The position numbers and the translations under genes were made by a program. A DNA stretch of 64,000 nt from Lingula anatina (lineage: Eukaryota > Animalia > Brachiopoda): contig CM120644.1 in assembly GCA_051362555.1 (NCBI GenBank), forward strand, positions 5,960,954 through 6,024,953, written 5' to 3'. The notes beneath the pieces are model-generated. The model was not told the DNA's origin. It saw nothing but the letters and a program-made list of their open reading frames with translations, and searched no databases. Below are positions 19,023 through 46,682 of the stretch, in pieces; positions within the stretch are counted from its first letter, which is position 1, and the number at the start of each line of letters is the position of its first letter.

Positions 19023-20422
19023 TTAATCAGCCAGTGAACCGTATACTTCGTTGTAAATGTTATTTGGGTCCTCGGTAAAAAAGAACTCAGCCATTGCATG
19101 CCCCAATTCGTCTTTGGTGATAAAGCCATCGTTGTTGTTGTCGATCAGGTTGAATGTTTTATGCGAATCCTCGGCGGAGAGGCATAAGCTATAGAAAAAA
19201 GCTTTGTACTCCTCTCTGGAAATGAGACCATCGCTATTTAAGTCAACGACAGCAAAAGCCCTGGACACCGCAGTCGAGAAAAGCTCCTCCCGGAAGTGTT
19301 TTTGGTTACACAACCCTTGAACCAATTCCACGTATTCTTCCTCCGATACCTTAGAAGCATTTTTCGTAATATATTCCCATTGCCTCAAGCGCTGATTTAG
19401 AATCTGCTCTGCTCTCTCATCTGAAAAACGAGCATTGTGTTCCATACATTTATTTATATTAATATCCACTCATATATAATGCATGTAACTCAGAATTTAT
19501 CTTAAAATCAACGCTACGTTGGTTGTCTTTTAGTGTTTGTAAAAATTAAATTGATCTAAAATGAGAGGCAGAGAAAGAACATACATATATTAACTTTTTT
19601 TCATGCAAGGTACAATAATTAAGTACATTAATCTGTTTTAGTTCATAAAATAATATGGCTAAAATTGAATTTGCAACAGAAATGTTATTTTACTTATTTT
19701 GATTATTCAACAATTTGAAACAAATTAGCCTACCGCCAAGGTCCAAATACTCTGCACAACGTTTCGCACTTATCACGTAATCTTCTTTTGTGATGTAGCC
19801 GTCACTGTTGACATCAAAACACCTGAAATATGTACGTAATTTCCGCTTCCAGTGTTCAGATCCAGTCAACGGCGGGTAGTCCATTGGAGCCTGAAAGTTG
19901 TTCAAATACCAGTTCATGTGTACATGGAAAACGGATAAAGAAAACAAAAAATAAAGTTTATTATATTACTTAAAAAAGAACCATACATTGGAGGATAGAA
20001 CACAAATAGTTGCAATATATTCAAGCAAATAGTTGCACATAAAAAAGTAACACATGGTATATCCTGCCGAAACCAAGTGAAGAGGAACAACGATTGTTGA
20101 TCACAAATATATATATTGGAGTATTGCCTGTTTGTTTTAAGTATCCCCAGTTCAAACCTTGTTTGAAGAGATATTTATGTTTACCAAAGTACCTCAGCGC
20201 ACATACAGATCCATTCGCTCTCTTTTTAATTACCCTTTTCAACTGTATCTGTTGGTGTTTTAGTCCTCAGACAGGAAAACTAAGTGGAGAAAATTTTAGA
20301 ACGAATTCATGTTGCAAAACCTTCCCCAACCGCCTGGTAGCCGGCATAACCCTTGCTAGCTCTTGACACATCAGTTGCATAATTCTTATCAACCCCCTAC
20401 TCACCTGGAAAACCTGAGCCAT
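19023..20422 (-). CDS. EF-hand SCP-like gene 4 (subtype A). Ancestral exon 1 (20422-20234) has TGA at codon 52; alternative micro-exon 20422-20405 splices in frame to exons 19890-19734 and 19420-19023
   Basis: CGA>TGA at 20269-20267. New CAG|GTGAGT after codon 6. Exons 2-3 are intact with three EF loops. Confidence 0.75.
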
Positions 20423-21388
20423 GTTGTCCGCCGTAGAGATCGCTATACCTGTATCCGTGGCAAAAATGTTCTTTCGTTTAAACGTCTTTCAGCGCTTAAA
20501 TAAAGATCGACCTATATTCATGCATTACCAGGGTGCACGTGTTATATAACGTGATACAATTATCATAAGTTATCAGTTCGGTTACTGTAAAAATGCAATT
20601 GCCCTTGTGAATAAAACTTCAGACTGCTAAATTTTTTTAAAGAAAATTAACCACTTTCAGAGTAGTGAATACAGTATGTGCCCACACACTTAGATAAGCT
20701 GGTTGTTCAGAATAATCAAACAAAAGAACCTTCTTGTTTTATTTTTTAAAGCTAACCTGAAGGTTTGTGTTGCGTAAATAGTAAAGCAAGGTTATCCATT
20801 TTCTGTTCTCTGTTATGTGCAATTCATGCTAAAAACAGCGGCCAATTTTATCAGATCGGAAAACATAATGTACCGGTTGTGTTATGTACTTGACACATCA
20901 ACTGTCTTCAGGCTTTGTTAAAAAAAAGATAGATGTAAAGTGGGGTGAGCAGTTCAGTGGGCACCTTTAAATATAGTATAAATTGGCAATCATGTCACGT
21001 TTTCAGCTCAAAGATGCAAGCACAACATTGACATGTGCTTTAATATTTAAATATGTTTAATGAGTTGGTTAAAATCTGTGATATTTTGAGATACCTCTAT
21101 CATTTTAAGTGGGAGAAGAACATTTTACTTTTTATTCACGTTTCAGAAAAGTTCAATGGATCAATCACTCTCCTATATAGTGAATAAAATAATATTACAT
21201 ACAAGTATGGCCCCCAGGTGCATTGTCCAAAAGGTGTTTGTCTGTTGATACCCTGAATTGGGCCAACTTACAGTGACCCATCTCCACCGTGTCCATTTTT
21301 GAGATTGTTTTGACGTGTTCAAACTAGGGCTCGTTAGTTTTGCCGCTGGTCTAGCTAATTTGCTTATTACAGTATTTTAAAACAGCAT

Positions 21389-21448
<60 letters not shown>

Positions 21449-22691
21449 CGTTCAGTTTTAAGAAATAATACATCTCAATGAAACATCTCAGCACTCTCAA
21501 CAAATATTATCACAATACAAATTAAATCAAGAACTTCAAAAATTTAAAAATAATGCAATCGAAATAAAAGCCAAAGCGAGAAGGGACACTAATCAGTAGT
21601 GTTCTTATAATATTTTTTATTTTTCTCTTGAAGCTGCATATATCATAGGTGCCGTAAACATTAAAGGACATGGGCCTTTTTGCTTAAATCGGATCAAAAG
21701 ATTATAAAAATGCAATCACAACTTCTTCCCCCATATGTTATAGAACCCTTTTGTTTCTTTTCACTTTAGGATAATCTGTCCACTTTTAAAAATTATGTTT
21801 AATCTGAGCAAATGACATATTGTATATCCACCAATATCAACTCGGCTAAAACATAATTTGTCAAGGATTCAGCAGGCAAGCCCCTACATACACTGTATCA
21901 TCAACATATCGTCAAACTATCCTTCATCACCGAAGATGACTGACTGAGTTGATCGAACCGGAGGCGTGTCTCAGACAGGCTGTGAGACTGGGTTCCCATC
22001 CCTAGATCGATCTAACAGGATTGGCCCATCTTGGTACAGAGTTTATAAATATTGATGATGGAAGGTATAAACCAAACTTCAGTCTCTTAATTGGCATGTC
22101 TTCTCTAACTTCTTTTAATCACATCATAAAATTAAAGAAATACAAAAATTTATAACTAAAGAAAACAAAATAAAAGCCATAGTGTTGTAGCATCCTTTAA
22201 ATGACTTTTTTCTTTTGAAGCAAAATGTATCATTGACGAAAAATCGATCTATTTTAGTTGAATTTGTTACCTTGATCTCTATTTTCCAATGGGAATTGCT
22301 AGTTCCTACAATGGTTCTTAAAACCAAATTGTGTAATTTATCCATGCCGACCGTCTATTTGGTTTTTTTTTTTCTAACATTTAGATTTCATATAAATAAC
22401 TTTGATATATACATGTCAAATATGTACAATCCAATATACCTCGTACTTTACAGCAATTATTTTAACAATTATTTTCATTGGAACAAAACTATACGATTTA
22501 AAGCAATGTGCATTGAAAGGTTTATAAATCTGCCACAGTGACTCCGACATTGGAACGAACCATTCCAAATTCTTGACAAATATTGTAATAAGGCTACACC
22601 CATTAGATTATCTTCATGGTCGTATAGTAGATATGACATTACTGGTTGAACTTGTTGACATTCAAAAGGCATGCATTATTTAAGTCAGTAT

Positions 22692-23904
22692 CTAATCAGC
22701 CAGTAGTCCGAATATTACGTTGTATTTGTTCTTTGGGTCTTCAGTAAAGAAGAACTCGGCTAAACCATGGGCAATCTCGTCAATGGTTATAAATCCACTT
22801 TTGTCTATGTCCAACAGGTCAAATATTTTCTTCGACTCTTCTTCAGGGATGTTAACGCTATAAGCCGAAGCCTTGTGTTCATCTCTTGAGATCAGACCAT
22901 CGCTATCAAGGTCCAAAGCAGTAAAATGCATGGACACATGTAAGGGGAAAACCTCGTGTCGGTAGCTTATCTGATTAAACACCATTGGGGCCGATTTAAG
23001 ATATTCTTCCTCTGATATCTTGGAAGCACCCTCTTTCATTTTTGAAGTTGAATCCCACATAGCAATACGCTGATTCAACATATGCTCTGCTCTCTCATCT
23101 GAAAAAAGCGAGAAGAGATTTTTAAATTGATATATTTTTCTATCCAACTGTAACTATCGTTTAATCCACATTCTGCCAGTCAAAGTTCTATAAAATAAAG
23201 CTGTATTTGAGGATTTTGATGTGTTATTTATTTATTTAAACAGTAAAAAGATATAAACACCTGTATTGTATAACATCTTTGCTTGTTGCAACAAGTGATT
23301 GTTACATTTATCTCGTGATGATATTTTCCCCATGAAAACATATTGCAAAATGCAAACCTGCAACAGATGCATGTTTCCCTATTTCACAAGTCATAATTTA
23401 CCAGTTAGTTCAAACCAGTTAGCCTACCGTTAAGGTTCATGTAGTCGGCGATGCGTTTTGCACTTATCACGAAGTCTTCTTTTGTAATGTAGCCGTCACC
23501 GTTTACATCAAAACACCTGAAAAATGTGCGCATCTTCCGTCTCCAGTGTTCAGTTCCAGTGACCGGCGGGTACTCCACTGGAGCCTGGAAAGTGTTCAAG
23601 TATGTTGGGAATTGGATTTTGAAAGTAGAAATGTCTAAGTCTCTGCAATTGAAGATTAGTGCATAGTACATAGTACATGTATATAGGAACTGTTCGGTAC
23701 GATCCTTCTCACCTTTCTAAACTGTATCACATGTTTTTTTAGTCCCCGGGTAGGTAAGATGAGCGGAGAGAATTTTGGAACCAACCCATGTTGCACAACC
23801 TTTCTCCACCTCTGGGTAGATGACATAAGACTTGTTAACGCTTGACATGGGTGTACCTGTATGATTCTTAGTAATCCTCTACTAGCATTGAAAATCTTAA
23901 ACAT
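22692..23904 (-). CDS. EF-hand SCP-like gene 5 (subtype B); exons 23904-23713, 23584-23428, 23098-22692; 251 aa
   Basis: Intact ORF across canonical splice sites. Leader MFKIFNASRGLLR...IQFRK. Loops DVNGDGYITKED, DLDSDGLISRDE, DIDKSGFITIDE. Confidence 0.9.
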
Positions 23905-25767
23905 GTTGACCACAATTAAAATTAATATTTCCGAGTCAGAAAAATGTGTCTTCCCGCTTTGAAGTGTGCAATAAAAGACGTTCTTTACTATCAACATGTC
24001 GACAGATTGTATATTGTAAGATGAACGTGAGTATTATGTACAAAGACCGATAGTGTTACAATGAGGCCAGACACGATGGATTCATTGATTAACGAAAATG
24101 ACTAACCCAAACGTAATTAAAACGTATTTGCAACCATTCTTGTAATGGTAAGTGGAAAAATTACAATTGACCCTTAGGGCAGTTGAATTTTTCCTACGAA
24201 AATCGACCACATAAAACAATTTATAAATAAAAGCAAACGCATTAGTTAAGCAAGGTGATCCATTTTCTGTTCTCTGTTATGTGCAATTCATGCTTTAAAA
24301 ACAGCGACCAATTTTGTCAGATCGGAAAACATAATGTACCGGTATTGTTATGTACTTGACACATCAACTGTCTTCAGGCTTTGTTAAAAATGATAGATGT
24401 AAAGTGGGGTGAGCAGTTCAGTGGGCGCCTTTAAATATAGTATAAATTGGCAATCATGTCACGTTTTCAGAACAAAGACGCTAGTACAACATTGGCATGT
24501 GCTTTAATATTTAAATTTGTTTAAACGACTTGGTTAAAATCTGAGATATTTTGAGATACTTCTATCATTTTAAGTGGGAAAAGAACATATTTTACCTTTT
24601 TCACGTTTCAGAAATGTTCATTGAACCAATCATTCTCTTATATAGGGAATACAATACAATTACATTCAAGTATGGCCCCCAGGTGCATTATTCAAAAGGT
24701 GTTCGAGCTATCCCTTTGGTATATGCAGTATGGTTGGGGGGGGGGGGGTATCGCCTTTTGATACCCTGGATTGGGCCAACTTGCAATGACCCACCTCCAC
24801 CACGTCCATTGTAAGGTTGTTTTTAACATGTTCAGACTTGGGCTATTTAGTCGTGTCGCTGGTCTAGCTAACTTACCCATTATAATATTTTAAAACAGCA
24901 TTGATATATATGTTTCGTTGTATATATGTGCCGTTGTAAGAAATAATAACATCTCAATAAAACATCTAAGCACTTCAACAAACATTATCACATTATTAAA
25001 TCAAAAACTACAAAAACTACAAAAATTTTAAACTAATGAAACCGAAATAAAAGCAAAAAGGGACACAAGTAAGTAGTGTTCTTATAATATTTTTTTAAAA
25101 TTTCTCTCATGAAGCTACATGTATCATAGGTGCAATAAAAATTAAAGGACATGTGACTTTTTGATAAAATCGGATCAAAAGATCATAAAAATGCAATCAC
25201 GGCTCCCTTCTCCCCCCCCAATGTGTTTTAGAACACTCTTGTTTCTTTTTTACTTTAGGAGAATTTGTCCACTTTCAATAATTATTTTTAATCCGAGCAA
25301 ATGACGTTTTGTATATCAACCAACGTCAGCTCGACTAAAACATAATGTGTCAAGCATTCAGCAGGCGAACTCCTACATACACTGTATCATCAACATATCA
25401 TCAGGCTGTCCTTCGTCACAGAAGATGACCGACTGAGTTGATCGTGCCGGAGGCGTGTCTAAGAGACCAATCCCAGAGACTATCGTACTAAACCGTTAAA
25501 GCTCAAAGCAATTCAGAGAGAAATCCATTGGAGATGGGTCGATCCAGTCAGATCGATCTAGGCATGGCGACCCAGTCTCAGACAGGCTCTAATGTGGGCT
25601 GTGAGACCCGCTTTGGATCTGCAAAAACGCTGTAATCTATGGCATTAGAAATTGATTGAAATGGATATAGGGTGTCGATGGCCATGTGTACATTGATATT
25701 TTTGCTAGTTCTGGTATTTAAAAGCTGACAAAGTTTCCTCAACAGCAAGCCATCTCTCTCTTTGTAT

Positions 25768-27158
25768 TTAATCAGTTAGTGGACCGAACATTCCGTTGTA
25801 TGGGTTATTTGGGTCCTCAGTAAAAAAGAATTCGGCAAAAGATTGTGCAAACTCGTCAATGGTTATGAAACCATCTTTGTCGGTGTCAACCAGGTCGAAT
25901 AATTTCTGTGCTTCTTCTTCGGGGATATTTGAGCTATAACACGAAGCATTGTGTTCTTCTCTAGAAATGAGGCCATCGCTATCAAGGTCCACGGCAGTAA
26001 AATGCATGGATATATACTTGGGGAAAAGCTCCTGTCGGTAGCTTCTCTGATTAAACAGCACTGGGGCCGATTTTAGATATTCTTCCTCTGATACTTTGGA
26101 AGCATCTTCTGAACTTTTAGGAATACTTTCCCATACAGCAATACGCTGATTCAGCAAATGCTTTGTCCTCTCATCTAAAAGAAGACAGAATTGTAATGTA
26201 TCTGAATCTTAAGATATGTTATATGCTTATCTCAAAGGAACGAGAGAGAAACGAATATGTACTGAATGTCACTTGCAGGCTGCGATAATTTATGCTTTGC
26301 TCTGTGAGACAATTTTGCAAACTAAAAACTTACAACAGATGAATGCGATTGCCTATTACACAATTCTTCATTCATCAGTTTGCTTTAACCAATAGCCTAC
26401 CGTCAAGTTCCAAATACTCTGAACAGCGTTTCGCACTTATCACATAGTCTTCCTTTGTGAAGTAGCCGTTGCCGTTTCCATCAAAACACCTAAAAAATGT
26501 GCGCAGCTTCCGTCTCCAGTGATCAGATCCAGTCACCGGTGGATAGTCCACTGGAGCCTGAAAGGAGTTTAAGTACATGGAAACTGGATTTAGAAAAAAA
26601 AAAGATCTTAGAACATTAAATTTAAGAGCGTTATTCTCTGCATTAGAACATGATACCCTCTGTGTATAAGAAAAGAAATTCAATTTATCCAATTACTTGT
26701 GTATTTTAAAGCTCAAAAACACATGCGAATTATCGATAAAAGAAAGTTTAAAATGACGGTTTGTACCAAAGAGATACCGTGCGATCCATCTGCTGGCGTT
26801 TCATCATATTTGTATTTATTTGTTTTGACAAGCAACAATGCAGGCGCCTTGCCGTTTATAGTTAATAGAATACATGCGACAAAACCGAAATCGCTTAAAA
26901 ATTAAAAAATAAATGAATAAATAAAATCTAACTTTAGTTTAGTAGGAACAGTGTTTTTCAATCTTTCTCACCTTTCTAAACTGTATCGCTTGGTTTTTTA
27001 ATCCCCGTACAGGTAGGTTTAGTGAAGAGATTTTTTGACTCAATCCATGTTGCTCAACTTTACCCAAGCTCTGGGTAGATGACATAAGGCTCGTTAACCA
27101 TTGACATGGGTTTATGATTTTTTAGTAACCCCCCACTTGCCTGGAAAACCTAAGACAT
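25768..27158 (-). CDS. EF-hand SCP-like gene 6 (subtype C). Exon 1 (27158-26972) is disrupted but has an in-frame internal ATG at 27085; exons 26557-26401 and 26174-25768 intact. Truncated-leader gene or pseudogene
   Basis: ATG TCT TAG (stop at codon 3) and a +1 A in the run near 27118-27123 relative to gene 9. Splice sites and EF exons are intact. Confidence 0.65.
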
Positions 27159-28142
27159 GTTGACCACCGTTATGATTGATAAATATGAGTCAAAAATGTC
27201 TGTCTTCCTGTTTAAACGCGTGTTATGAAAGACGTACTGTGCTATTCAAACGTTGACAGACTGCATTATATAATATAAACGTGAGTATTACGTACAGCTA
27301 ACGACAGTGTTACTAGAACCTTTTTTTAGGCGTGGTAGCAATTTTGTCAGATCAGAAATTATAAAGTAACATAATGCTCAGCGTTAAAGCGATTCAAGTG
27401 TCGACTGTCTTCACTCCTCGTTTAAAAAAGATAGATGTGTAGCGGGCGAGTGGTTAACTGAGCGCCTTTAAATCTAGTGTAAATTAGTTATCATGTCACG
27501 TTCTCAGCACGAAGATACCGGTACAACATTGACATAGGTGGTAATCAATGGAATTTAGAAGGAAACAAATTTAGTGAAGATTGATGGCCATTTGTGGCGG
27601 CATTTTGATTACTTTGATAAAAAACATTTTTGAAACCATTCTTTTAATTGAAAAATTGCATCATTTTGGTAAGGCAAAACAATTTTCAATTGCCCTAAAA
27701 TACTCAAGGCTGTTAATTTTCACTAGAAAAATCGTCAGCATAAAAATTATTTATAAATAAAACAGCACACACAGCACCTGGTCCAACATAACTTTTAGCT
27801 GCCCATGAAACACATATCAATGATGAAAAACCTAAAAAGAAACCTAGACTACATATATACATACTCTATAAAGATAGCGTGGCCAATATTTAAAAACTTA
27901 TTAATTTGTTCTGGCCTTATCAAGGGTATTCAGATGTCCAGCCATTTGAATTATGCGTGGGAGTCAAGATTAAATTGAGATACTTATGTGATAGTGTGCA
28001 TTGCAAGGCAACATTTATCAAACATGATCATCATCAGTACACGGTCATTTGAAATGAAATCAAGGTAGTCCGATTGACTATTTATTACCTTGAATTGTGC
28101 ATAAGTGCTCCGGACAGTTGAGCATTCTGCACCACACGTGCC

Positions 28143-28188
<46 letters not shown>

Positions 28189-28282
28189 CAATGTACACCG
28201 TCGACCAAACGAAATCTTACATGCAGTCAGGCCGCATTCATGTATCATTTAACATACGGAGGGAGAGGTCTCTCCGAAAAAG

Positions 28283-28361
<79 letters not shown>

Positions 28362-28624
28362 TTAATGCACGGCGTTTGTGCTATTGCTAATTGTACTATA
28401 CTGTAGAGTGTGGAAGTGACGATGCAAGCGAACGACGTTTGTGCAATGCAGCATTTTATTGATGAAATAGCTATAAATGGTACACTGGTTCCCCACCAAA
28501 ATCTTAGCATTTGTTCCCTGGCCAATTCTGAACTATGCTAAAAATTTCATCACACCCATCCCTATATTTCTGCATAATGTTGCTAATCGAAAGGAAAAAT
28601 AGGCTCCTTGGAGGATGTAATCAC

Positions 28625-30008
28625 TTAATCAGCCAGTGAACCGAATATATCGTTGTATATGTTATTTGGGTCCTCGGTAAAAAAGAATTCGGCTATTGCA
28701 TGCCCAAATTCGTCAATTGTTATGAAGCCATCGTTGTTGTTGTCAATCAGATGGAACGCTTTTTGCGACTCCTCGGCAGAGAGGCATAAGCTATAGAAAA
28801 AAGCTTTGTACTCCTCACTGGAAATGAGACCATCGCCATTTATGTCAACGATAGTAAAAAAGTTGGACACCGTCGCCGAGAAAAACTTCCGAAAGTGTTT
28901 TTGGTTACACAACACTCGAAGCAATTCCACGTATTCTTCCTCCGATACCTTGGAAGCATTTTTTGTAATATATTCCCATTGTCCGATGCGCTGATTTAGA
29001 ATCTGCTCTGCTCTCTCATCTGAAAAAACGAGCATGGTTATTTCATCCATGTATATGACTGTGCAGTTATCTTTAAATCCGCTATACCCGGTAGGTTGGT
29101 CACTTTTTCTGACAATTATTTGTAAAAAAACAAAAAAAAAATTATTTAAAAATGAGAGACAGAGAAAGCACATATATTTTTTCCTTGCTGGGTACAATGT
29201 TTTAGTCCATAAAATTGAATTTGCAACAGAAATATACTTTCACTTATTTTTATTATTCAACAATTGGTATCAAATTAGCCTACCATTAAGGTCCGAATAC
29301 TCGGCACAGCGTCTTGCACTTAACATATAATCTTTTTTTGTGATGTAGCCGTCACCGTTTACATCAAAACACTTGAAATATGTGCGTAATTTCCGTCTCC
29401 AGTGATCAGATCCAGTCAACGGCGGGTAATCCATTGGAGTCTGAAAGGTGTACAAATACCAGTGGATGTGTAGATTGTAATCAGATGCAAAAATAGAAAT
29501 AACGCTTGATACAATTTATATTTAAATGAAAAAATCGTATATCGGTTGATGGAAAGCAAAATATCGCAGTATATTCAAGCATACAGTTTTACATTAAAAA
29601 CAGAAACACATGGTATATCGATGGCCTCCTGCCGAAACCAAATGGACAGGAACAATTTCTGATCCCAAATATATATTCATATATTGGAGTATAAACTGCT
29701 TTTGTAGCACTGTCCAGTTCTAATCTTGTTTTAAGTGATATTAATGTTTAACAAAAGATCTCAGCACACATATGTATATATGTTTTGTGAACCGCTTCAT
29801 TTGCAGTCTTTTTCATTACCTTTTTAAACTCTACCGGTTGGTGTTTTAGTTCTCGGACAGGCAAATAAAGTGGAGAGAATTTTGGAACAAATCCATGCTG
29901 CAAAACCTTCTCCAACCGTTTGGTAGTTGACGTAACCCTTGCTAACCCTTGACACATCGGTTGTATAATTCTTATCAGACTCCTACTAGCCTGGAAAACC
30001 TTAGACAT
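28625..30008 (-). CDS. EF-hand SCP-like gene 7 (subtype A); exons 30008-29820, 29440-29284, 29019-28625; 246 aa
   Basis: Intact ORF and canonical splice sites. One-codon deletion in exon 3 relative to genes 2-4. EF1 loop DVNGDGYITKKD. Confidence 0.9.
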
Positions 30009-30775
30009 GGTGACCGCCGTAGAGATCGATGTTCCTGTATCCGTGGCAGAGATGCTCTTTCATTTAAACGTCCCTTAAGAGTCATATAAAAAGGTAGAGC
30101 TATATTTAAACATAACCAGGGTGCACGTGTTATATCACGTGATACAATTATGCATCTCATAAAAGTTCGGTTGGTGGAAAATGCAATTGACTCTATGAAC
30201 AAACCTCCAGGCTGTTAATGTTTTGTTGTATTGAGAAAATTGACCACATTCAGAGTAGTTAATACAGTACATAACCACACAATTAGATGAGCTGGTTGTA
30301 CAGAATAACCGAACATGAGGAGTACCCCTGTGTTGGATCTTATTGTGTTTTAAAATCACTATAAATTTTTTGTGTAAGCAGTAAAGTAAGGTGATCCATT
30401 TTTTGTTCTCTGTTATGTGCAATTCATGCTTAAAAACAGCGACCAATTTTGTCAGATCGGAAAACATAATGTACCGGTAGTGTTATGTACTTGACATATC
30501 AACTGTCTTCAGGCTTTATTAAAAAATATAGATGTAAAGTGGGGTGAGCAGTTCAGTGGGCGCCTTTAAATATCCTATAAATTGGCGACCATGTCATGTT
30601 TTCAGCACAAAGATGCCAGTACAACATTGACATGTGCTTTAAAATTTAAATTTGTTTAAATGACTTTGTTAAAATTTTGTTATATTTTGAAATACCTCTA
30701 TCATTTTAAGTGGGAAAAGAACATATTTTACCTTCATGTTTCAGAAAAGTTCACTGGATCAATCATTCTACTATA

Positions 30776-32440
30776 CAACATTGGTCAAAAAGGTTGTCCC
30801 ACCCCCAGTTTCATGTGCCCTTATTTATAAATGATCACATCGCAGGGGTTAATTGCTATGAATGGTGATTTTCATTCCAGATACCATAACTAACAAGACT
30901 AGTGGTACAGAAAATACAAACTAGTGGTTAAGATATCTATACCCAATACCATTTATTCACATTTATTACATGTACCCTCTCAAATCCGATGTTACACTGT
31001 CATTTCAACGTAGGTATAGAAATACCCATAAAATTGAAATGACACATCCAAATGTCACCAAATTTACTCACATTTAGCATTAGGGTTTGCTCGTTAAAGG
31101 TCGCGTGTCTATTAGCGTGTGTGGCTACCGTGCACTGTAATTATCTCTTGTAGACGGCGTCACTGCCTTCAACAAGGGTAACAATTCTGTTTTGTGGGAT
31201 ATTGCCCCATGTTTCCTGAAAAAAGCTTTGCGTAATTGGTCCGGACTATTTGGGGTTTGGTTCTCCTCTGGATTGCACGCTTCAATTCATGTCACGGGTG
31301 CTCATTAGGTTTATTATCAGGATTTAAAGATGGTTTCTCCAGCCTCAGAACAATGGGTTTCTGCAACAAATTACTCACCACACGAGAACTGTGTGCAAGT
31401 GTACAGTCATGATGAAGCCTGAAACACTCCCGCAGTCCACCCTTGCAGACAGAATGAGGTATCAGTTGAGAATGTTAGGTTCAGTGACCCCAGAACTACC
31501 GGAACTTGGTCAACCATCACTAGGAACAAGTTGGTTTTGCTGAAGTATCAAGGTATTTCTTGTATGCCTTCGATGGTCAAATTAGGGACCGTAGACATGT
31601 TGCAAAATGCTTTCTGGAATTTTTGTGCAGGATAATATCGCCTGAGGTGTCAGGTCAATCCCCGTTTGGAGAGAATGCCAAGCCCATGGTTTTAGTGCAT
31701 TGTTCTTTCCGAAAAAGAACGTTATTGGGGGAATTCACTGAAACGTTCTCAACAAATATCTCACACCATTTGCAAGAGATGACTTCAGGGATACGGCAGG
31801 CGTCATCGTGGAAATGCACTTGCTCACAACTCTCGTCTGCTGAGTGATTTGTTGCAGAAACCAATGTTCAGAGGATGGAGCAACCACCTTTTTGCCCTGT
31901 TATTAACCTTACTAAACATCTGTGGCATGAATTAAAGTGTGCAATGCCAAGGAGAACCAAACTCCTAATAAGCTTTACCAACTTTCCCAAGCTCTTTAGG
32001 AAGAATGGGGCATTATCGCATAAAACAGAATTGTTACCCTTGTTGAAGGCAGGTCGCTCCACCTACAGGAGGTAATTTCAGTACGCAGTAACCACAAACG
32101 CTAATAGACAAGTAGTCTTTAACGAGCAAACCCTAATGCTAAACGTGTGTAAATTTGGTGACATTTGTTGGTGTCATTTTAATATAATGGACATTTCTTG
32201 ACCTCTGTGAAAATCACAGTGAAATGTCGGATTTGAGGGGGTACATGTAATAAATGTGAATAAATGGTATTAAATATTGATATCTTCACCGCTAGTTTAT
32301 ATTTTCTGTATCACTTATCATGTTAGCTATGGTATCTGGAATGAAAATCACTATTTATAACGATCTTCAACTGTGCTGTGATCATTTATAAATAAATGCA
32401 CATAATACTGAAGGTGGGACAACCTTTTTGACCAATGTTG
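30776..32440. mobile_element. Palindromic (foldback) Tc1 derivative made of two inverted 3' halves
   Basis: Termini CAACATTGGTCAAAAAGGTTGTCCCACC are inverted, with TA TSD. The ~700-bp arms both encode a decayed transposase C-terminus (e.g. NVQRMEQPPFCPVINLTKHLWHELK). Empty site at ~21177, ~24640 and ~34935. Confidence 0.85.
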
Positions 32441-33025
32441 TATAGTGAATAAAATACTATTATATTCAAGTATGGCCCCCAGGTGCATTATTCGACAGGT
32501 GTTCAAGTTATTCCTTTAGTAAATGCAGTATGGGGGATATCGCCTGTTGATACCCTGAATTGGGTCAACTTGCAGTGACCCATCTCCACCGCGTCCATTG
32601 TAAGATTGTTTTTAACATGTTCAGACTAACTTACCTATTATAATATGTAACAAATTCAACTAAAATACATTGATTTTACGTCATTAATGATACATTTTGC
32701 TTCAAAAGAAAAAAAAAGTCATGTAATGGATGCTAATAATAATGATTCCAATATACCTCGTCTCCAAATATGTACTTTACAGCATTTTTTTAAAATAATT
32801 ATTTTCATTGGAACAAAGCTATACGGTTTAAAGCAATGTGCATTAAAAGCTCAATAAATCTACCACAGTAGTACAACCCATCCCAAATTCTTGACAAATA
32901 TTATAATAAGGCTACACTCATCAGATTATCTTCATGATCGAATAGTAGAAATGACATTCCTGGCTGAACTTGACATTCAGAAGGCATGTATTATATCAAA
33001 GCTGACTCATCATTTAAGTCGGTAT

Positions 33026-34158
33026 TTAATCAGTCAATGGTCCGAATATTCCGTTGTATGTATTATTTGGGTCTTCAGTAAAGAAGAATTCGGCAAAAGC
33101 ATGGACATTCTCGTCAATTGTTATAAATCCATCTTTGTCTATGTCCAATAGGTCAAATACTTTCTGCGAATCTTTTTCGGAGACGTTAAAGCTATAAGCC
33201 AAAGCCTTCTGTTCATCTCTTGAGATCAGACCATCGCTATCAAGGTCCACAGCAGTAAAATGCATGGATGCATGCAAGGGGAAAGACTCGTGTCGGTAGC
33301 TTCTCTGATTAAACACCATTGGGGCCGATTTAAGATATTCTTCCTCTGATATCTTGGAAGCACCCTCCTTCCTTTTTGAAATTGAATCCCACATAGCAAT
33401 ACGCTGATTCAGCATATGCTCTGCTCTCTCATCTAAAATAAGCGAGAAGAGATTTTAAACTGATATATTTTCCTATCCAACTGTAACTATCGTTTAATCC
33501 ACATTCTGCCAGTCAAAGTTCTATAAAAATAAAGCTGTTTTTAAGGCTTTTGATGTGTTATTTATTTATCTTTAAAGTAAAAAGAAAGAAACACGTGCAT
33601 TGTATAACATCTTTGCGTGTTACAACAATTGACTACATTTATCTCGTGATGATTTTTTTCCCATGAAAAAAATTGCAAAATGCAAACATGCAACGGATGC
33701 ATGTTTCCCTATTTCACAATTTTTAATTCGCCAGTTAGTTCTAACCAGTTAGCCTACCGTTAAGGTCCAAATAGTCGGCAATGCGTTTTGCACTTATCAA
33801 GAAGTCTTCTTTTGTAATGTAGCCGGCACCGTTTACATCAAAACACCTGAAACATGTGCGCATCTTCCGTCTCCAGTTTTCAGATCCAGTCACCGTTGGG
33901 TAGTCCAGTGATGCCTGGAAAGTGTTCAAGTATGTTGGGAATTGGATTTAGAAAATAGAAATAAGTCTACGTCTCTGCGATTGAAGATTAATATATAGGA
34001 ACTGTTTGGCACGATCCTTCTCACCTTTCTAAACTGAATTTTGGAACCAACCCATGTTGCACAACCTTTCTCCACCTCTGGGTAGATGACATAAGACTTA
34101 TTAACTCTTGACATGGGTGTATGATTCTTAGTAATCCCCTACTGGCTTTGAAAATCAT
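33026..34158 (-). pseudogene. EF-hand SCP-like gene 8 (subtype B). Exon 1 (34158-34025) frameshifted by a 46-nt deletion; exons 33914-33758 and 33432-33026 open. Possible alternative start ATG at 34114
   Basis: Alignment to gene 5 shows 46 nt missing at ~34036. EF1 loop is DVNGAGYITKED (ligand D>A). The ATG at 34114 is in frame with exon 2. Confidence 0.65.
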
Positions 34159-36043
34159 GTTGACAAGCCTCAAGATATACTTCCGAGTCAGAAAAATATC
34201 TGCCTTCCCGCTTTAGCGTGTGCAATAAAAGACGTTCTTTACTATTCACACGTCGACGGATTGTATTATGTAAGATGAACGTGAGTATTATGTACAGGGA
34301 CCGGTAGTGTTACAATGAGGCTACACACGACCGATCCATTGATTTACGAGCACGACTAACCCTAACATAATTAAAACGTATTTGCAACCATTCTTTTAAT
34401 GGAAAAATTGCGTTGGCTTCAGTTTGGTAAGTGGAAAAATTACAATTGACCCTTAAGGCAGTTAAATTTTTCCTAGGAAAATCGACCACATAAAACTATG
34501 TACATGTATAAATAAAAGAAAACGCAGTAGTAAAGCAAAGTGATCCATTTTCTGTTCTCTGTTACGTGCAATTCATGCTTAAAAAACAGCGATGAATTTT
34601 GTCAGATCGGAAAACATAATGTACCGGTAGTGTTATGTACTTGACAAATCAACTGTCTTCAGGCTTTGTTAAAAAATGATAGATGTAAAGTGGGTTGAGC
34701 AGTTCAGTGGGCGCCTTTAAATGTAATATAAATTGGCGACCATGTCACGTTTTCAGCACAAAGATGCCAGTACAACATTGACATGTGCTTTAATATTTAA
34801 ATTTGTTTAAATGACTTGGTTAAAAATCAGTTATATTTTGAGATACGTACCTCTATCATTTTAAGTGGGAAAAGAACATATTTTACCTTTTATTCACGTT
34901 TCAGAAAAGTTTACTGGATCAATCATTCTCCTATATAGTGCATACAATACTATTGCATTCAAGTATGGCCCCCAGGTGCATTATTTGAAAGGTGTTCGAG
35001 TTATACCTTAAGCATGTGCAGTATGGGTGGGGGTGGGGGGGGCGTATCGCCTTTTGATACCCTGGATTGGGCCTACTTGCAATGACCCACCTCCACCACG
35101 TCCATTGTGAGATTGTATTGTTATGTTCAGGCTAGGTCTAGTTGGTCTTGCCGCTGGTCTAGTTAACTTACTTATTATAATATTTGGAAACAGCATTGGT
35201 ATATATGTTTCGTGCCGTTTTAAGAAATAATTATATCTCAGTGAAACATCTCAGCGCACTTAACAACTGTTATCACATTATAAAATCAATAATGACAATA
35301 ACTTTAATCTAATGAAATCGAAATAAAAGCAAAAAGGCCTAAAATAAGTAGTGTTCTAATAAAAGTTTTATTTTTCTCTTGAAGCTACATGTATCAAAGG
35401 TGCCGTAAAGATTGAAGGACGTGGTCCTTTTTGAAAAGTTCGGATCATAAGATCATAAAATGCAATCACAGCTCCTCCCCCCCCCCCCATGTGATTTAGA
35501 ACACTCCTGTTTCTTTTGACTTAAGAAGAATTTGTCCACTTTTAAAAATGATTTTTAATATGAGCAAATGACGTATTGTGTATCAACCAACGTCAACTCG
35601 GCTAAAACATAATGTGTCAAGGATTCAGCAGGCGAGCTGCTACATACACTGTATCATCAACATATCATCAGACTGTCCTTCGTCACCGAAGATGTCTGAC
35701 TGAGTTGATTGAGTCTGAGGCGTGTCTCAGACAGGCTCTAAGACTTGGTTTTTATCCCTAGACCGATCTTACAGGATCAGTCCCTCTCCAAGGGGTCCCT
35801 CGCTAAATTGCTTTCAGCTTAAGTGGCTTAGATGTCTGGGACGCCCACTAAAGTTGCTAAATTATAGTTAATTACACCCTATCAGCCTCAGCAGACGTGA
35901 CAGACATCTAAGACGCCCAAGTTTATTGCAATCAAGCGAGAATCCCCTCGAAGAGTTCGATCCAAATTTGGTACGTAAGGGTCTGGGAATGGTCTCTAAT
36001 GTGGGCTGTAAGACCCGCTTGGGATCTGCAAAAACGCTGACAT

Positions 36044-36141
36044 CCCAGCAGGCAAACGACATTGATTTTACGTTGATTCAACGTTGATCCACCAAAATTA
36101 ACATTGATTCAACGGTGAATCAATGTCGTTTGTCTGCTGGG
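36044..36141. mobile_element. 98-bp MITE with CCCAGCA termini
   Basis: CCCAGCAGGCAAACGACATTGATT...AATCAATGTCGTTTGTCTGCTGGG flanked by AT/AT. Absent at the paralogous site ~25630. Confidence 0.75.
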
Positions 36142-36261
36142 ATGTGTTGCATTAGAAATTGATTCAGCTGGATGTTAAATGTCGAAGATCATGTGTACGT
36201 TGATGCTGATCTTTAAAGGTTGACAAAGTTTCATCAAAAACAAGCCATCTCTCTTTGTATT

Positions 36262-37730
36262 TTAATCAGCCAGTGGTCCGAATATTCCGCTGTATGTGTT
36301 ATTTGGGTCCTCGGTAAAAAAGAATTCGGCAAAAGATTGTGCAAATTCGTCAATGGTTATGAAACCATCTTTGTCGGTGTCAACCAGGTCGAATAATTTC
36401 TGTGCTTCTTCTTCGGGGATGTTTGAGCTATAACACGAAACCTTGTATTCTTCTCTAGAAATGAGGCCATCGCTATCAAGATCCACAGCAGTAAATTGCA
36501 TAGACAAATGCCTGGGGAAAACCTCCTGTCGGTAGCTTCTCTGATTAAACAGCACTATTGCCGATTTTAGACATTCTTCCTCTGATACTTTGGAAGTATC
36601 TTCTGAACTTTTAGAAATACTTTCCCATACAGCAACACGCTGATTCAGCAAATGCTCTGCCCTCTCATCTAAAAGAAGCCAGAATTGTATTGTATATGAA
36701 TCTTAAGATATAATATGTTATATGAATCTTTAAAATGCTTTATATGCTTTTCTCAAAGGAACAAGAGAGAATCGAATATGAACTGAATGTCAATTGTACG
36801 TAGCGATAATTTATGCTTTACTCTGTGAGACCATGTTGCAAAATGAAAACTTACAATAGATGAATGCGATTGCCTATTACACAATTCTTCATTTACCAGT
36901 TTGTTTTAACCAATAGCCTACCGTCAAGGTCTAAATACTCTGCACAGCGTTTCGCACTTATCACATAGTCTTCCTTTGTGATGTAGCCGTCGCCGTTTAC
37001 ATCCAAATTCCTGAAAAGTGTGCGCATCTTCCGTCTCCAGTGATCAGATCCAGTCACCTGCGGGTAGTCCACTGGAGCCTGAAAGGAGTTCAAGTACATG
37101 GAAACTGGACATATCCATAGTTCCAAATTGAAAAGCGTTGTAATCTGCATTGGAACATGATACTCACTCCCCATGTACCAAAACCGAATCCCAATTTATT
37201 CAATGTTTTTTGTGTATTTAAAGGTCAAAAACACACGCGGTATATCGATAAAAGCAAGTTAAAATGACAGTTTGTACCAAAGAGATACCGTAGGCTACGA
37301 TCCATCTGCTGACTTTTCATCATATTTGTATTAACAAGCAACAATGCAGTCGCCTTGTCGTTTATATTAAAACAGAATACATGCTACAAAACCGAAATCA
37401 ATCCCAATAAAAAGAACATTCCTCGGATCTAATCTTGTTTATAAATAAAAAGTCAAGTTATTTAAGTAACAAACTGCTGCCAATATATTATACCCTTTGG
37501 TATTCATTAAGAGAAGGAACAGCGTGTCTTTCAATCTTTCTCACCTTTCTAAACTGTATCGCTTGGTTTTTTAAACCCCGTGCAGAAAGGATAAGTAAAG
37601 AGATTATTGGACCTAATCCATGTTGCTCAACTTTACCAAATCTCTGGGGAGATGACATAACTCTCGTTACCCTCTGACATGGGTTTATGATTTTTAGTAA
37701 TCCCCCACTTGCCTGGAAAACCTTAGACAT
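36262..37730 (-). CDS. EF-hand SCP-like gene 9 (subtype C); exons 37730-37545, 37078-36922, 36668-36262; 249 aa
   Basis: Intact ORF and canonical splice sites. Loops DVNGDGYITKED, DLDSDGLISREE, DTDKDGFITIDE. Confidence 0.9.
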
Positions 37731-38364
37731 GCTGACCACCTTTATGATTGATAAAATGTCTGCCTTCCTTTTTAAACGCGTGTTATGGAAGACGTACTGT
37801 GTTATTCAAAAGTTGACAGACTGCATGGTATAAGATAAACGTAAGTATTACGTACAGCTAAGGACAGTATTACTAGAACATTCTTTTTAGGCGTGGGACC
37901 AATATTGTCAGATCAGAAAATATATAGTAACAGAATGCTCAGCGTTAAAGCGATTCAAGTATCGACTGTCTTCACTCCTCGTTTAAAAAAAGATAGATGT
38001 GTAGCGGGTGAGTGGTTCACTGAGCGTCTTTAAATATAGTATAAATTAGTTATCATGTCACGTTCTCAGCACAAAGATACTAGTACAACATTGGCATGTG
38101 TGGTAATCAATGACATTAAGAAAGAAACAAGTATAGTAAAGATTGATGGCCATTTGTTGTGCATTTTGATTACTTTGATAAAAACATTTTAAAACCATCA
38201 TTTAAAATTAAAAAATTGCATCAGTTTGGTAAAAATATTTCAATTGCCCTAAAAAACTCAAGGCTGTTAATTTTTGCTAGAACAGTTAACGAAATTGGTG
38301 TAATTTATAAATAAAACAGACCGACTGGTTGAATATAACTTTTAGCTGCCATAAAACACATGTA

Positions 38365-40106
38365 CACACACTGGACAATAGAAGTGTCACCCCTACTGAA
38401 CCAATACTATGGGGGAGATAAATGACTGTGGAATGATATGCTCCTGGTATCATTTTATTAACATCAACTTTCACAAAAAATCATAAAATGAGAACAAAAT
38501 ATGAACATTCTACCAAAATATGCAGTTCAAGTCCAAAATTAGTACTTAGTGGCATAGCCACGTGATCTAATAATAGGTGCCAGTCTACGAGGCAAGGATT
38601 CATATAATTGTCTGATGCGTTAAGGGCTTATGCTGGCCCAAGTATGAAACACTGAAGATAACAGAGTTTCTCTGCTGGTCAGACGGGCATTTGTCAAAAG
38701 TTTTGACATATTATTCCACACATTTTCTATTATGTTTGCATCTGGACTCTGGGTAGGCCACATCACCCTGCGAATGTCCTGTTGGTCAAACCAATCATCA
38801 ACTGCTCTGGGCCTGTGACAAGGGGCATTGTCATCCTGGTGAACAAATGGATAATTCCTGTCACCAAACATGTTAGTAATAGATGGTAGCAAGCCTGCCT
38901 CCAAAACATCGATATATTTCTAGTTATTCATGTTTCCATCACCCGCTATCAATTCGCCCACGCCATGGATGCTGATGCAGCCCCACACCATGATGAATAT
39001 GCTGCTCCGGGTTCGAAAATTCAGTGCATGTGGTTCAAATGCTTTACCAGCAGTTCGCCAGCATCGTACCCGTCTGTCATCAGAGGTAAGACCAAAGCGA
39101 CACTCATCAGAAAAAAATATATAGGACCAATTGTCATGGACTGTCCAGTTCCAAATCCTGTTGACCCTAGTTCACTCTACGTTGCCTGTTTTGTAACGAT
39201 ATAAGAGGTTTCAGTCTTGCCACCCTGCTGTACACTCTATGAGCATGTAACCGACGCCTAGCAATTTTCACAGACACATTCTTATGTGTGAAATTGTTCC
39301 ACTGTGTTGTCAACTGACAAGCAGTGTCGAACTTTGACACCTGGACATAAAAATCAGTCCGACCGGATGGCCTTGTGGTTAGAGTGTCCGCCTCCGGAGC
39401 GGGAGGACGTGGGTTCAAAACCCGTCCGGGGACATACCAGTCCTTTATAAACGGTACCTGCTGTCTCCCCGCTTGGCACTCAGCACTAAGGGGTTGAAGC
39501 AGGGACCTGGTCAGGCAGTGCAGAAATGTTATATTAGCTATGAGCGCCTAATATGGCAGCCGAGCTGTATGCTCCCCAGGGAGGTGAGACCGTCTACGGA
39601 GTGCACCAGTGTAAAAATGACCAGGCTTCCTTGACGTGAATATTCATATATGTAATTGTATAACTTCAACCTTCGGGTTGCGATTCTCCAATAAAGATTA
39701 TTATATTATTATTATATAGTCGTCGGTCTTCACGGCCAGTAGTTTTTCTTGGACGACCCATCAGAGGCAATTTGTCTCTTGACCCAGTGTTTCTATACCG
39801 AGACCAGACCCTCTGCACGGTTCTGACTGAACAATTCAATTGTATCGATATTCTGATATTGCTTATATTCCACCTCTTCAGGTTAATAACTTGCACCTAT
39901 AACCGTTAGATAATTACCTGTATCTTGCCATATTGGAGGAAGACAGGAATAACATTTGCTGTACATGTACAAGACCAACAATGGTATAGCGGTTTTATAC
40001 TCATTTTTCACATTATAAGTAGAGCAGGCATTAGTGTAAGTGCCCAAGATCTGCCTACTTTTATTACTCTGAGTTAGGGGGTGACACTTCTATTGTCCAG
40101 TGTGTG
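38365..40106 (-). mobile_element. Second copy of the same Tc1 element, interrupted by a SINE
   Basis: Same TIRs with TA TSD. The D-to-E spacing counts to 34 residues. Shares inactivating TAG codons with the 6139 copy. Empty site at ~27815. Confidence 0.92.
39360..39716 (+). mobile_element. tRNA-derived SINE (Meta-SINE-like central domain) nested in the Tc1 copy
   Basis: A box TGGCCTTGTGG and B box GGTTCAAAACC. Central AAACGGTACCTGCTGTCTCCCCGCTTGGCACTCAGCAC. AATAAA followed by a (TTA)n tail. Absent from the other Tc1 copy. Confidence 0.8.
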
Positions 40107-41299
40107 TATGATGAAAAAAAAAAAAAAAAAAAAAATGAATCTAGTCTATATACATACTGTATTAATAGAGAGTCGCCACTACTTAAAAACTTATCAACTT
40201 GTTCTGGCCTTATCAATGATATCCAGTCATTGGATTTACGCCTGGGATTGAAGATAAAATTGAGCAGAGATACTGATGTGATAGTGTAGATTGCAAGGCG
40301 AGATTTATCAACAATAATTATCATCAGGACACGGTCATTTTATTTGATATCAAGGTAGTCTGATTGACTTTGTAAATATAGTTTAAAAAGCCATGTTTGT
40401 AGAAAGAAATGACCAATTTTGTTAGATCGAAAATTATAAAGTGACACCGTGCGCAGCGTGTGAAAGATTGGCGTATTGAAAGCGCTACCAATTCACTGTT
40501 TGTTGAAAAAGATATAGGGGTAGCGGGCGAGCGGTTCACTGAGCATCCTTAACAACAGCTTTACAACCTTGTCACGTAATCAGCAAAAAAGGGTAACTGT
40601 TTAACAATAACATGCCCCTTACTCTGTATGCATCCTTCTAAGATATACCAAATACTGAATAATATGATTATATTTGTGGCACCCGATGATTTCTACTCTC
40701 ACGATGTTCATCGTGTGTTGTTTTCCAATAGTTTCCCTGTTACAAAATGATGCCATTTATATTACTGTAAAAAAGAAAGATTTAAAATGGAAATATAGTT
40801 TAAAAGGAAATATAAAGAAAGTGGCGTGAGTGCTATTCTGTGTACTTTAAAATGTATTTAACAGTAAATGTTGAAGGTCATTTGTGGCACCCTAGGTTGT
40901 TTTGCCTCACAATGGTCATCGTGAGCTGTTTTCCACTCATTTAATTCCTACAATGTATTTAAGCATCTACCAGTATATCACAAAAATGAAGAAAAAAAAT
41001 GATAATATAATATAATATAATATAATATAATATAATATAATATAGATTATCGTCCAGGGTCTCTTCAAAGTTGGTACCATACAGTTAGATCACATTAAAC
41101 TTACACGATTGCCGATGAAACATTGAGTAAATCATGTAATCTAGTCTCCTTAATATTATCATTCAATCTATTACTTGTGACGCAATTTCTTATTCTAGTT
41201 GTCGACAATCAAGAGAAGCATCTTTCTTCCTTTGCTGATTTCATTTTAGAAGAATGAAACTTAAGTACGTTGTTTTAATCAACGCAGAAACAAAACAGT

Positions 41300-45207: not shown

Positions 45208-46289
45208 TTATCATCATCATCATCATTATTATTAATGCATTTTCACATTGAAGAAAAAAATGCAATGGGTACTGTTTTTGAAAATTAAATTAAAATCCCC
45301 CCCCAGCAAAAAAAAAAAAAAAAAAAAAAAAAACATTTAAAAATAAGAACCAACTTTTAAATACAACACAGACATATTCCAGCTCTTATTACAGAGAGTC
45401 GGAGCTCGTTTAACAAGTTATCTGACCTTATTTGAGGGTATTCAGTGATCCAAAGAGTGAAGGTGGCGGTTAGCAGGGAAACTTGTTTCATGTTGACAAG
45501 CTTATGACAGGGGTGCATAAATTCCTGCATAACCAAAGCAGGGTCACCTAGGAAGGCTTGCTGAATACCATAGCTGCACCACAGTTTCATATACATGTAG
45601 CTCAAGAAAACCGACCTTTCCCCCTACGGAATCAAATCAAATAACTTCCCATACTTATAGCACGATTGCAGCAATTGTGCTGCTTGCTCAACTACCACAT
45701 GAAATGCAAACAACTAGTAGTACAGTAGTAGTGTATTTTGTACTGGTGTTAAAACAACTACGTCAATAGAAGATTCATATCGCAGTAATATAAGGTTAAT
45801 GATGTATGGTTGAAAAACTGAGCAATGTATCCCCTTATTAGTTCAAGGAAATTTAGCCTTTTAATTCAACTATATCAAGAACTGTCAATTTTTTTTCAAA
45901 TAGTAGACGTCCGCTGGTAGATATTTGAAAATACGCGCGACCAATTAGTTCAATTACTAGCTAGAAAAGTTAAGATAGTGGCATCCTTTGCCTTCGTCAA
46001 GATCAGAGTTCATCACTTCACACTAATCTGATGCATCTTTATCCACTGTTTAGTACTCCAAAATTAGTCTTCCTTAAACAGCGAGCACTTGCTGCAGGCA
46101 ATTGGTTCGCATTAATTGGAAGCCCTGGCGATCATGGCGGTCAGAAAGTTAGTAAAAATTTTTTGGAATAAAATAGTTTAAATAATTGTCAATTCAAGAT
46201 AAACGATATGTGATTCGGTTATATCTATCCCAAATCATAATTCTATAATGCATGTGAAGACCCTTCAGCGACCCATCAATGGGACCATT

Positions 46290-46440: not shown

Positions 46441-46644
46441 GTTTCCATCTCCTGACGGATAAACCTTTTCAATTATTTTTATTCAATATTGTTCCAATTT
46501 TCTTACTTTGTTCATATAATGATTTGAAAAATCAGACACATTATTCTTATAAATACAAAGTTTTTCCAGGTACCGAAAGCCTTGGTGAACCACCTTCTAA
46601 ACAATTTTCTAATCTCTATCTACCCCTCTCTCTCTCTCTCTCTC

Positions 46645-46682
<38 letters not shown>

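Follow-up and report, generated by a model that had tools for sequence, protein, structure and literature searches.

Sarcoplasmic calcium-binding proteins (SCPs) have a compact fold of four EF-hands, span about 170–195 residues, and serve as soluble cytosolic Ca2+/Mg2+ buffers that carry no targeting leader. The window analyzed here, a stretch of 64,000 nucleotides from the brachiopod Lingula anatina (GenBank assembly GCA_051362555.1, contig CM120644.1, positions 5,960,954 to 6,024,953 of the forward strand), contains an array of 11 paralogous SCP-like EF-hand genes. Their products resemble the Nereis SCP (PDB 2scp/1q80) in sequence, in predicted fold, in loops I, III, and IV, and in a degenerate site II, and the predicted fold is also like that of the Renilla coelenterazine-binding protein (2hps/2hq8). 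Whereas the 174-residue Nereis chain has no leader, the intact Lingula copies begin with a basic leader of 59–71 residues that is encoded on an exon of its own.

Genes 4, 6, and 8 of the array carry lesions in this leader exon, and the initial annotation interpreted them as repeated relocalization, with one targeted and one cytosolic isoform in each pair of a duplicated gene triplet. That duplicates can relocalize by losing an N-terminal mitochondrial signal is well established, according to a study (PMC2790464) that also describes recent relocalizations as scarce in a survey of human families; Arabidopsis peroxidases have been relocalized through a new start codon, according to another (PMC4202327). 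The reading that we adopt, with a little more confidence than doubt, is that gene 4 has likely become leaderless through a new splice donor, gene 8 is likely a young dead allele, exon 1 likely encodes a mitochondrial signal, and gene 6 could equally be alive or dead.

Results

A leader exon in front of the EF-hand domain

Each of the 11 genes consists of three exons, with a phase-0 intron 1 and an exon 2 of 157 nt. Pfam places EF-hand matches in exons 2 and 3, and an alignment of the 11 genes shows canonical acidic loops at sites I, III, and IV with a degenerate site II. The top PDB sequence match is the Nereis SCP (E 2e-12).

Exon 1 is coding. In a codon model of our own (F3x4), fitted to ten genes and without gene 1 as too distant (synonymous divergence, dS, above 1.1), its ratio of nonsynonymous to synonymous rates (omega) is 0.61 (p = 0.003 against 1), and indels between intact copies keep the frame. 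In the eight intact genes, the exon-1 peptides contain 10–13 Lys/Arg and 0–3 Asp/Glu, in contrast to the mature domain of gene 9 (20 Lys/Arg, 37 Asp/Glu); their first 30 residues have a hydrophobic moment of 0.57–0.85, and a hydrophobic core is missing (the highest mean hydropathy over 8 residues is 0.6–1.6). A basic leader of 28–82 residues is present in 15 of the 19 Lingula-named family proteins examined. Mitochondrial presequences are N-terminal, net positive, and poor in acidic residues, and form an amphipathic helix without a hydrophobic core. The leader matches all of these features in the eight intact genes, as scored by simple measures of composition, moment, and hydropathy rather than by a trained predictor. 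From these sequence properties, it is likely that exon 1 encodes a mitochondrial import signal. A secretory signal peptide was ruled out by the missing hydrophobic core. Pfam assigned the leader to no family, and an Atlas search gave no usable match.

A new splice donor in gene 4

The lesion of gene 4 is a premature TGA in exon 1. Upstream of it, two substitutions in codon 7 have created a phase-0 GT donor that is the best-scoring site in the gene, at 12.4 compared with 6.7 for the old donor (both scored with an approximate matrix). If this donor is in use, the TGA falls in an intron, and the protein would start with six residues that have also lost their sole Lys. A RefSeq model, P0003 (XP_013402815.1), has precisely this splice, and its 190 residues differ at one position from the predicted product of gene 4. 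An AlphaFold model of P0003, calculated with a 70-sequence alignment, predicts a complete SCP fold (predicted local distance difference test score [pLDDT] 95.6, predicted template modeling score [pTM] 0.89) that superimposes on Nereis SCP 2scp with template modeling (TM) scores of 0.81/0.88 and on 2hq8 with 0.78/0.82; a single-sequence fold (pLDDT 50) was discarded. On the tip of gene 4, the longest of the tree, exons 2–3 show background-level constraint, with a per-tip omega of 0.43 (p = 0.045 against 1) and values of 0.44 and 0.48 under two topologies (p = 0.048 and 0.034). Additionally, the proportion of nonsynonymous differences (pN) for the pair 4/7 is 0.097, compared with an intron divergence of 0.203. 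Gene 4 is probably a live leaderless gene.

At the position that corresponds to the new donor (codon 6/7), genes 6 and 9 read CAG/GCAAGT and genes 2, 3, 7, and 10 read CAG/GCTAGT. The sequence CAG/GCAAGT is an active GC donor in human disease cases (accessible part of PMC3167603), and GC-AG introns favor first introns and alternative 5′ sites (accessible part of PMC7242645). Judged from these motifs, splicing at the GC donor may already give the intact copies a minor isoform without the leader, one that gene 4 would then have fixed; the codons may also be conserved simply for the peptide that they encode. We propose that a latent near-donor at codon 6/7 of gene 4 became a consensus donor through two substitutions, that the remainder of exon 1 would then have become intron, removing the leader and yielding a cytosolic protein, and that the CpG-type TGA would have arisen afterwards at no cost. 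Mitochondrial import, donor use, and this order of events are what we infer. A more ambitious version regards the array as a built-in targeting switch, in which a latent GC donor, found in six of the ten other genes, would allow intact copies to remove the leader in a small share of transcripts. Gene 4 would have made the short isoform permanent, and reinitiation would have given genes 6 and 8 their leader-short forms, so that a single young array would have divided calcium buffering between mitochondria and cytosol three times, each time by a different mechanism. We consider this version quite unlikely.

Gene 8 and its closest relative

The first ATG of gene 8 is intact, with A at −3, and opens an open reading frame (ORF) of 52 codons that ends 132 nt before the last exon junction. 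The downstream ATG that could restore access to the EF-hand domain (ATG 34114) lies inside this first ORF in another frame and has a weak context, with C at −3. When a 46-nt deletion was simulated across exon 1 of gene 5, 115 of 140 placements left an ATG route. In addition to the 46-nt deletion, gene 8 has a 6-nt in-frame deletion after the ATG that was absent from the list in the initial annotation and with which an X2 contig (34070–34454) agrees without differences.

The RefSeq model P0006 (XP_013402574.1) is the sister of gene 8 (Shimodaira–Hasegawa-like approximate likelihood ratio test 99). It lacks the 46-nt deletion, starts at an internal Met, and ends 10 residues early in exon 3. The deletion is therefore younger than the split between gene 8 and P0006. 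Only about the final third of the branch postdates that split (tip 0.038, stem 0.073), too short a span for the open exons 2–3 of gene 8 to carry much weight. For the pair 5/8, pN is 0.086 compared with an intron divergence of 0.096 (p = 0.71). Gene 8 has a P2S replacement at a column that does not vary elsewhere, an Asn where the other ten genes have a hydrophobic residue, and an Ala at position 5 of site I. With good probability, gene 8 is a young null.

Gene 6 and its internal methionine

Both lesions of gene 6, a stop codon and a +1 frameshift, fall in the initial 73 of 751 nt and precede the ancestral in-frame Met25, a placement that favors a live product starting at Met25. Judged by its length, the two-codon first ORF could permit reinitiation there. 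In mammals, start-proximal stops often escape nonsense-mediated decay, as described in the accessible parts of PMC12776119 and PMC13043745; by extrapolation, such escape might extend to this brachiopod gene. The Met25 product would retain a leader remnant of 38 residues, whereas the leaders of P0010, P0026, and P0027 have only 28, and since this remnant is still basic, a live gene 6 need not be relocalized.

It is thus possible to envisage that genes 4 and 6 are both alive and only gene 4 is relocalized, with gene 6 reinitiating to give a working short leader, its lesions being nearly neutral, and gene 8 dead. The upstream position of both lesions agrees with this scheme, as do the composition of the remnant (4 Lys/Arg and 1 Asp/Glu in 30 residues), the pN of the pair 6/9, which at 0.072 is below the intron divergence of 0.141 (p = 0.001), and the mildness of the two private changes of gene 6 at conserved columns. 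We nonetheless regard the scheme as improbable: two out-of-frame ATGs (27107 and 27101) precede Met25, whose own context is weak, the hydrophobic moment of the remnant is 0.43, down from about 0.8, site I contains three unusual residues, and the protein-search matches include no RefSeq model of gene 6. For gene 6 taken by itself, life and death are about equally probable.

Selection on exons 2–3 and RNA reads

Comparison of dN/dS between damaged and intact copies, which the initial annotation had put forward as a check, does not discriminate between them: with low power, omega on exons 2–3 is 0.59 for damaged and 0.71 for intact tips (p = 0.66), and neither class differs from 1 (p = 0.059 and 0.25, respectively). 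Relative to a background of 0.41, the individual tips give 0.75 for gene 5, 0.54 for gene 7, and 0.87 for gene 9, and among the damaged copies 0.64 for gene 6 (p = 0.43) and 0.82 for gene 8 (p = 0.68). When tips 5, 6, 8, and 9 are pooled, omega is 0.76, which exceeds the background (p = 0.016) and does not differ significantly from 1 (p = 0.26). Relaxation is thus as marked in the intact partners as in the damaged copies.

Over genes 7–9, we inspected raw RNA reads from the runs X11 and X14 (about 6% of each, at 85% likeness). Depth was zero in all five bins of gene 8, zero or 0.05 in the four bins that lie entirely inside gene 9, and 0–1.4 in gene 7. As the intact genes 7 and 9 are as silent as gene 8, these reads say nothing about the lesions.

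Clustering of lesions in exon 1

All four exon-1 lesions that had been listed for genes 4, 6, and 8 are present in the assembled sequence; among the reads and contigs listed, none crosses the lesions of gene 4 or gene 6 or the 46-nt deletion. We consider it very improbable that some of them are assembly errors. The candidate for such an error is above all the extra A of gene 6, which sits in a homopolymer outside the listed reads and contigs; gene 6 also has the TAG substitution, the splice form of gene 4 is found in an independent RefSeq model, and to either side of the 46-nt deletion, gene 8 agrees fully with contigs of X2 (33479–33886 and 34070–34454; 0 differences). A deletion of 46 nt is also not a typical base-calling error.

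The initial annotation argued that three independent first hits in an exon that makes up about a quarter of the coding sequence would be rare, at 0.25^3. The arithmetic is fair: exon 1 accounts for 24–28% of the coding sequence in full-length copies and for 26–33% of nonsense targets, giving p = 0.016–0.027 for three first hits. If gene 4 is set aside because the donor accounts for its TGA, the remaining two first hits have p = 0.06. The observation that exons 2–3 stay open with their splice sites kept is also correct, and it applies to all 11 genes. Other parts of the argument did not survive. The reciprocal pattern, with one damaged copy per pair, has a chance of 8/20 = 0.4 given that three of six copies are damaged, and was discarded as a signal. 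All three in-frame routes to the EF-hand domain do exist; ATG 27085 of gene 6 and ATG 34114 of gene 8 are ancestral and common to intact copies, and such routes are often supplied by chance (in gene 9, 9 of 28 nonsense changes and 69–92 of 134–180 frameshifts leave one), so that those of genes 6 and 8 were discarded as evidence.

Under neutral evolution since the duplication, exons 2–3 should have collected about 4, 8, and 9 disabling changes on each branch of the pairs 5/8, 6/9, and 4/7, respectively. Since genes 4–9 have none, none of the six copies can be long dead. The open exons fit recent lesions, or lesions tolerated by way of a downstream start; selected relocalization does not follow from them. 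In our proposal, genes 5, 6, 8, and 9 would have come under relaxed selection after the triplet duplication, and exon 1 would be where lesions persist first, since the EF-hand domain can often still be reached from an ATG farther downstream and the copies are redundant. Selected relocalization would therefore be unnecessary for genes 6 and 8.

The alternative closest to the initial annotation is that all three damaged copies are translated in leaderless or leader-shortened form and that each pair is kept as a targeted and a cytosolic protein. The clustering of all four window lesions in exon 1, the exons 2–3 that are open where neutrality predicts lesions on every branch, the placement of both gene 6 lesions before Met25, a residue at which P0006 also starts, and the mammalian escape of start-proximal stops from decay are all in keeping with this alternative. 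It is unlikely, as genes 6 and 8 would rely on ancestral ATGs of a kind that chance often provides, the ATG of gene 8 is located within the first ORF and has a pyrimidine at −3, the clustering is reduced once gene 4 is removed, omega does not separate damaged from intact copies, and the Met25 form of gene 6 may not relocalize at all. For gene 4, the donor, the RefSeq splice, the purifying selection, and the predicted fold speak for relocalization; for gene 8, the ATG appears to be a chance one, and gene 6 is evenly poised. On present evidence, the relocalization reading holds for one of the three damaged copies, and the stronger claim of three selected relocalizations is not supported.

Several points weigh against the combined reading adopted here. 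The splice of P0003 is itself a RefSeq prediction, the p-values for gene 4 are marginal and uncorrected for six tips, and an omega taken over the entire branch does not tell when the TGA arose. In gene 4, the stretch of exon 1 that would have been abandoned has an omega of 0.90, not significantly above the 0.59 found elsewhere (p = 0.50), and the private nonsynonymous (N) and synonymous (S) changes in exon 1 and in exons 2–3 do not differ in ratio (13N:4S vs 23N:13S; p = 0.53). A phase-0 donor at least as good as the old one arose in 6–7.5% of neutral simulations on exon 1 of gene 7, because the ancestral site is already near a donor, and the new donor alone is therefore not proof. The early end of P0006 may be a model or assembly fault, and P0006 may be a further paralogue rather than an allele of gene 8. 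For gene 6, a second hit in the same small region would have a chance of about 1 in 10 if the gene were dead (this second lesion being the one in a homopolymer), and the pair 6/9 has the low pN described above. Finally, the complete lack of disabling lesions in exons 2–3 of genes 4–9 must be set against the 4–9 per branch that are expected.

Some of these points bear on a further possibility, that all three damaged copies are young pseudogenes that followed a segmental duplication, with their lesions clustered in exon 1 by chance. One loss per pair is an ordinary outcome, the pooled omega of tips 5, 6, 8, and 9 does not differ from 1, P0006 is cut short in exon 3, donors such as that of gene 4 arise in neutral runs, and gene 8 has unusual residues at an invariant and at a hydrophobic column. 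The possibility is doubtful, given that exons 2–3 of gene 4 are held at background constraint and are one residue apart between two haplotypes, that its in-frame consensus donor yields a complete predicted fold, and that the probability of the clustering is small (0.016–0.027).

The protein family and the other copies

Lingula anatina RefSeq models made up all five matches of a first protein search and the best 8 of 17 of a second, and 10 further top representatives that were looked up also came from L. anatina; judged by these matches, the array belongs to an SCP-like expansion specific to this species. In RefSeq, the Lingula models are named SCP or luciferin-binding protein-like. Those corresponding to genes 2, 3, 4, and 5 differ from them by 1, 1, 1, and 5 residues (P0005, 5 of 251, for gene 5), and the window therefore represents another haplotype or assembly. 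RefSeq models of genes 6 and 7 were not among the matches of the protein searches. P0004 (XP_013402563.1) differs from gene 9 at 29 of 249 residues and P0006 from gene 8 at 18 of 199; they are either very divergent haplotypes of the block or extra copies.

Gene 2 has an in-frame 8-residue leader insertion (9029–9095) that stems from a local duplication, and a change of Asp to Val at the exon 2/3 junction (8076), where P0007 has Asp; between genes 2 and 3, omega is near 1. Exon 3 of gene 7 is one codon short. In gene 1, the most distant copy, exon 2 opens with an ATG, as it does in P0023 and P0024, while P0022 has its first residue at this point; the leader exon may be a later addition, placed ahead of a start that once gave a cytosolic protein. 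P0028 represents gene 1 in shorter form, with its start inside exon 2.

The duplicated blocks and neighboring elements

Blocks at 18.8–28.1 kb and 28.4–40.4 kb are collinear at 78–85% identity, in line with the annotated duplication of genes 4-5-6 as 7-8-9. DNA contigs of X2 and X4 (among the 16 of about 9,000 pieces listed) include gene-8 together with gene-5 types, or gene-9 together with gene-6 types, plus gene 7. The presence of both copy types in both sets of contigs means that the duplication is real, and tandemly misassembled haplotypes were ruled out by this presence and by the level of identity. Genes 4 and 7 are not a private pair: the dS of gene 7 is 0.14 and 0.15 to genes 2 and 3, and 0.24 to gene 4. 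Gene 7 is thus nearer to genes 2 and 3, so that family A comprises four genes, of which three are intact. Families A and B are separated by a dS of about 0.7.

An element of 280–400 nt, located 340–370 nt upstream of the ATG, is 84–94% identical among genes 2, 3, 4, 5, 7, and 8. Its contig depth is near that of genes and not that of repeats, it is retained in damaged copies as well, and it is a candidate shared enhancer or conversion tract. An orphan fragment at 5033–5196, with no coding exons nearby, is 75% identical to the 5′ region upstream of gene 5 and is probably what is left of a lost copy. A high-copy element (30765–32450) with inverted arms of about 720 nt (79% identity) is inserted between genes 7 and 8. 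Two copies of another element (6136–7525 and 38363–40109), 93–95% identical and in opposite orientation, flank genes 2–9 and contain broken transposase-like ORFs; judged by their motifs, they are putatively of the Tc1/mariner type. Three related repeats of about 1 kb occupy 45742–51191, and their ORF translations share a tRNA-like reverse sequence.

Table 1. Features of the Lingula anatina SCP-like array, with positions in the window
Feature	Position	Strand	Basis or remark
Gene 1	3216-4774	plus	
Genes 2-11	7679-44945	minus	
Gene 4, damaged	20422-19023	minus	
Gene 4, short coding exon 1 (6 codons) if new donor used; product 190 aa	20405..20422	minus	
Gene 4, new phase-0 GT donor, CAG/GTGAGT	20405/20404 (20403..20404)	minus	
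Gene 4, rest of ancestral leader exon, likely intronic now	20234..20402	minus	
Gene 4, TGA at codon 52	20269-20267	minus	CGA in genes 2, 3, 7; CpG transition
Gene 4, exon 2, EF-hand site I	19734..19890	minus	
Gene 4, exon 3, degenerate site II and sites III and IV	19023..19420	minus	alignment, Pfam EF-hand
Gene 5, intact, 251 aa	22692..23904	minus	exons 23904-23713, 23584-23428, 23098-22692
Gene 6, damaged	25768..27158	minus	exons 27158-26972, 26557-26401, 26174-25768
Gene 6, TAG at codon 3 (2-codon first ORF)	27150..27152	minus	
Gene 6, A6 run, one extra A, +1 frameshift	27118..27123	minus	A5 in gene 9
Gene 6, in-frame ancestral Met25, 225-aa ORF, 38-residue leader remnant	27083..27085	minus	
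Gene 7, intact, 246 aa	28625..30008	minus	exons 30008-29820, 29440-29284, 29019-28625
Gene 8, damaged	33026..34158	minus	exons 34158-34025, 33914-33758, 33432-33026
Gene 8, alternative-frame ATG, 217-aa ORF	34112..34114	minus	same ATG out of frame in genes 5, 6, 9
Gene 8, 46-nt deletion junction	34037/34036	minus	
Gene 9, intact, 249 aa	36262..37730	minus	exons 37730-37545, 37078-36922, 36668-36262
Gene 9, latent GC-type donor at site of gene 4's new donor	37711..37712	minus	exon 1 position +18
Shared upstream element	9541-9830, 13127-13410, 20779-21177, 24244-24642, 30380-30775, 34526-34935		
Shared upstream element, weaker copies	27330-27540, 37890-38105		

Discussion

A literature search, with most subscription papers outside its scope, returned no paper on the Lingula SCP-like family or on a mitochondrially targeted SCP, and the accessible portion of PMC13425148 mentions EF-hand domains in shell proteomes only. 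Confirmation of gene 4 would also point to an enlarged repertoire of SCP-type calcium buffers that are sent to mitochondria in a brachiopod. Long basic N-terminal extensions before the EF-hand domain are also found in the arthropod SCP-like proteins P0137 (Cacopsylla), P0119 (Brenthis), P0104 (Notodromas), and P0086, which are alike in this respect; they form a separate clade, and their leaders are not convincingly alignable with those of Lingula.

With respect to mechanism, gene 4 would be like the cases of exon intronization and novel splice donors described in the accessible parts of PMC2901347 and PMC3538075, in that a point-mutated donor turns coding sequence into intron. Those parts, and the corresponding ones of the GC-AG papers (PMC3167603, PMC7242645), deal with neither an SCP nor a brachiopod.

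By its sequence, the short form of gene 4 would be leaderless in the manner of a typical SCP, unlike the leader-bearing intact Lingula copies. It would resemble the relocalized duplicates of PMC2790464 in that an N-terminal signal is lost while the core domain is constrained. It differs from those cases in that the leader would be lost by a new 5′ splice donor that intronizes it in place, and recently, with a localization that is predicted. Gene 4 would be a recent example, by intronization, of a known event, the loss of a targeting peptide after duplication. If confirmed, it would offer a recent and fully traceable compartment change of a duplicate, brought about by a splice donor that arose through two base changes, and the intact sister copies of the array could serve as controls.

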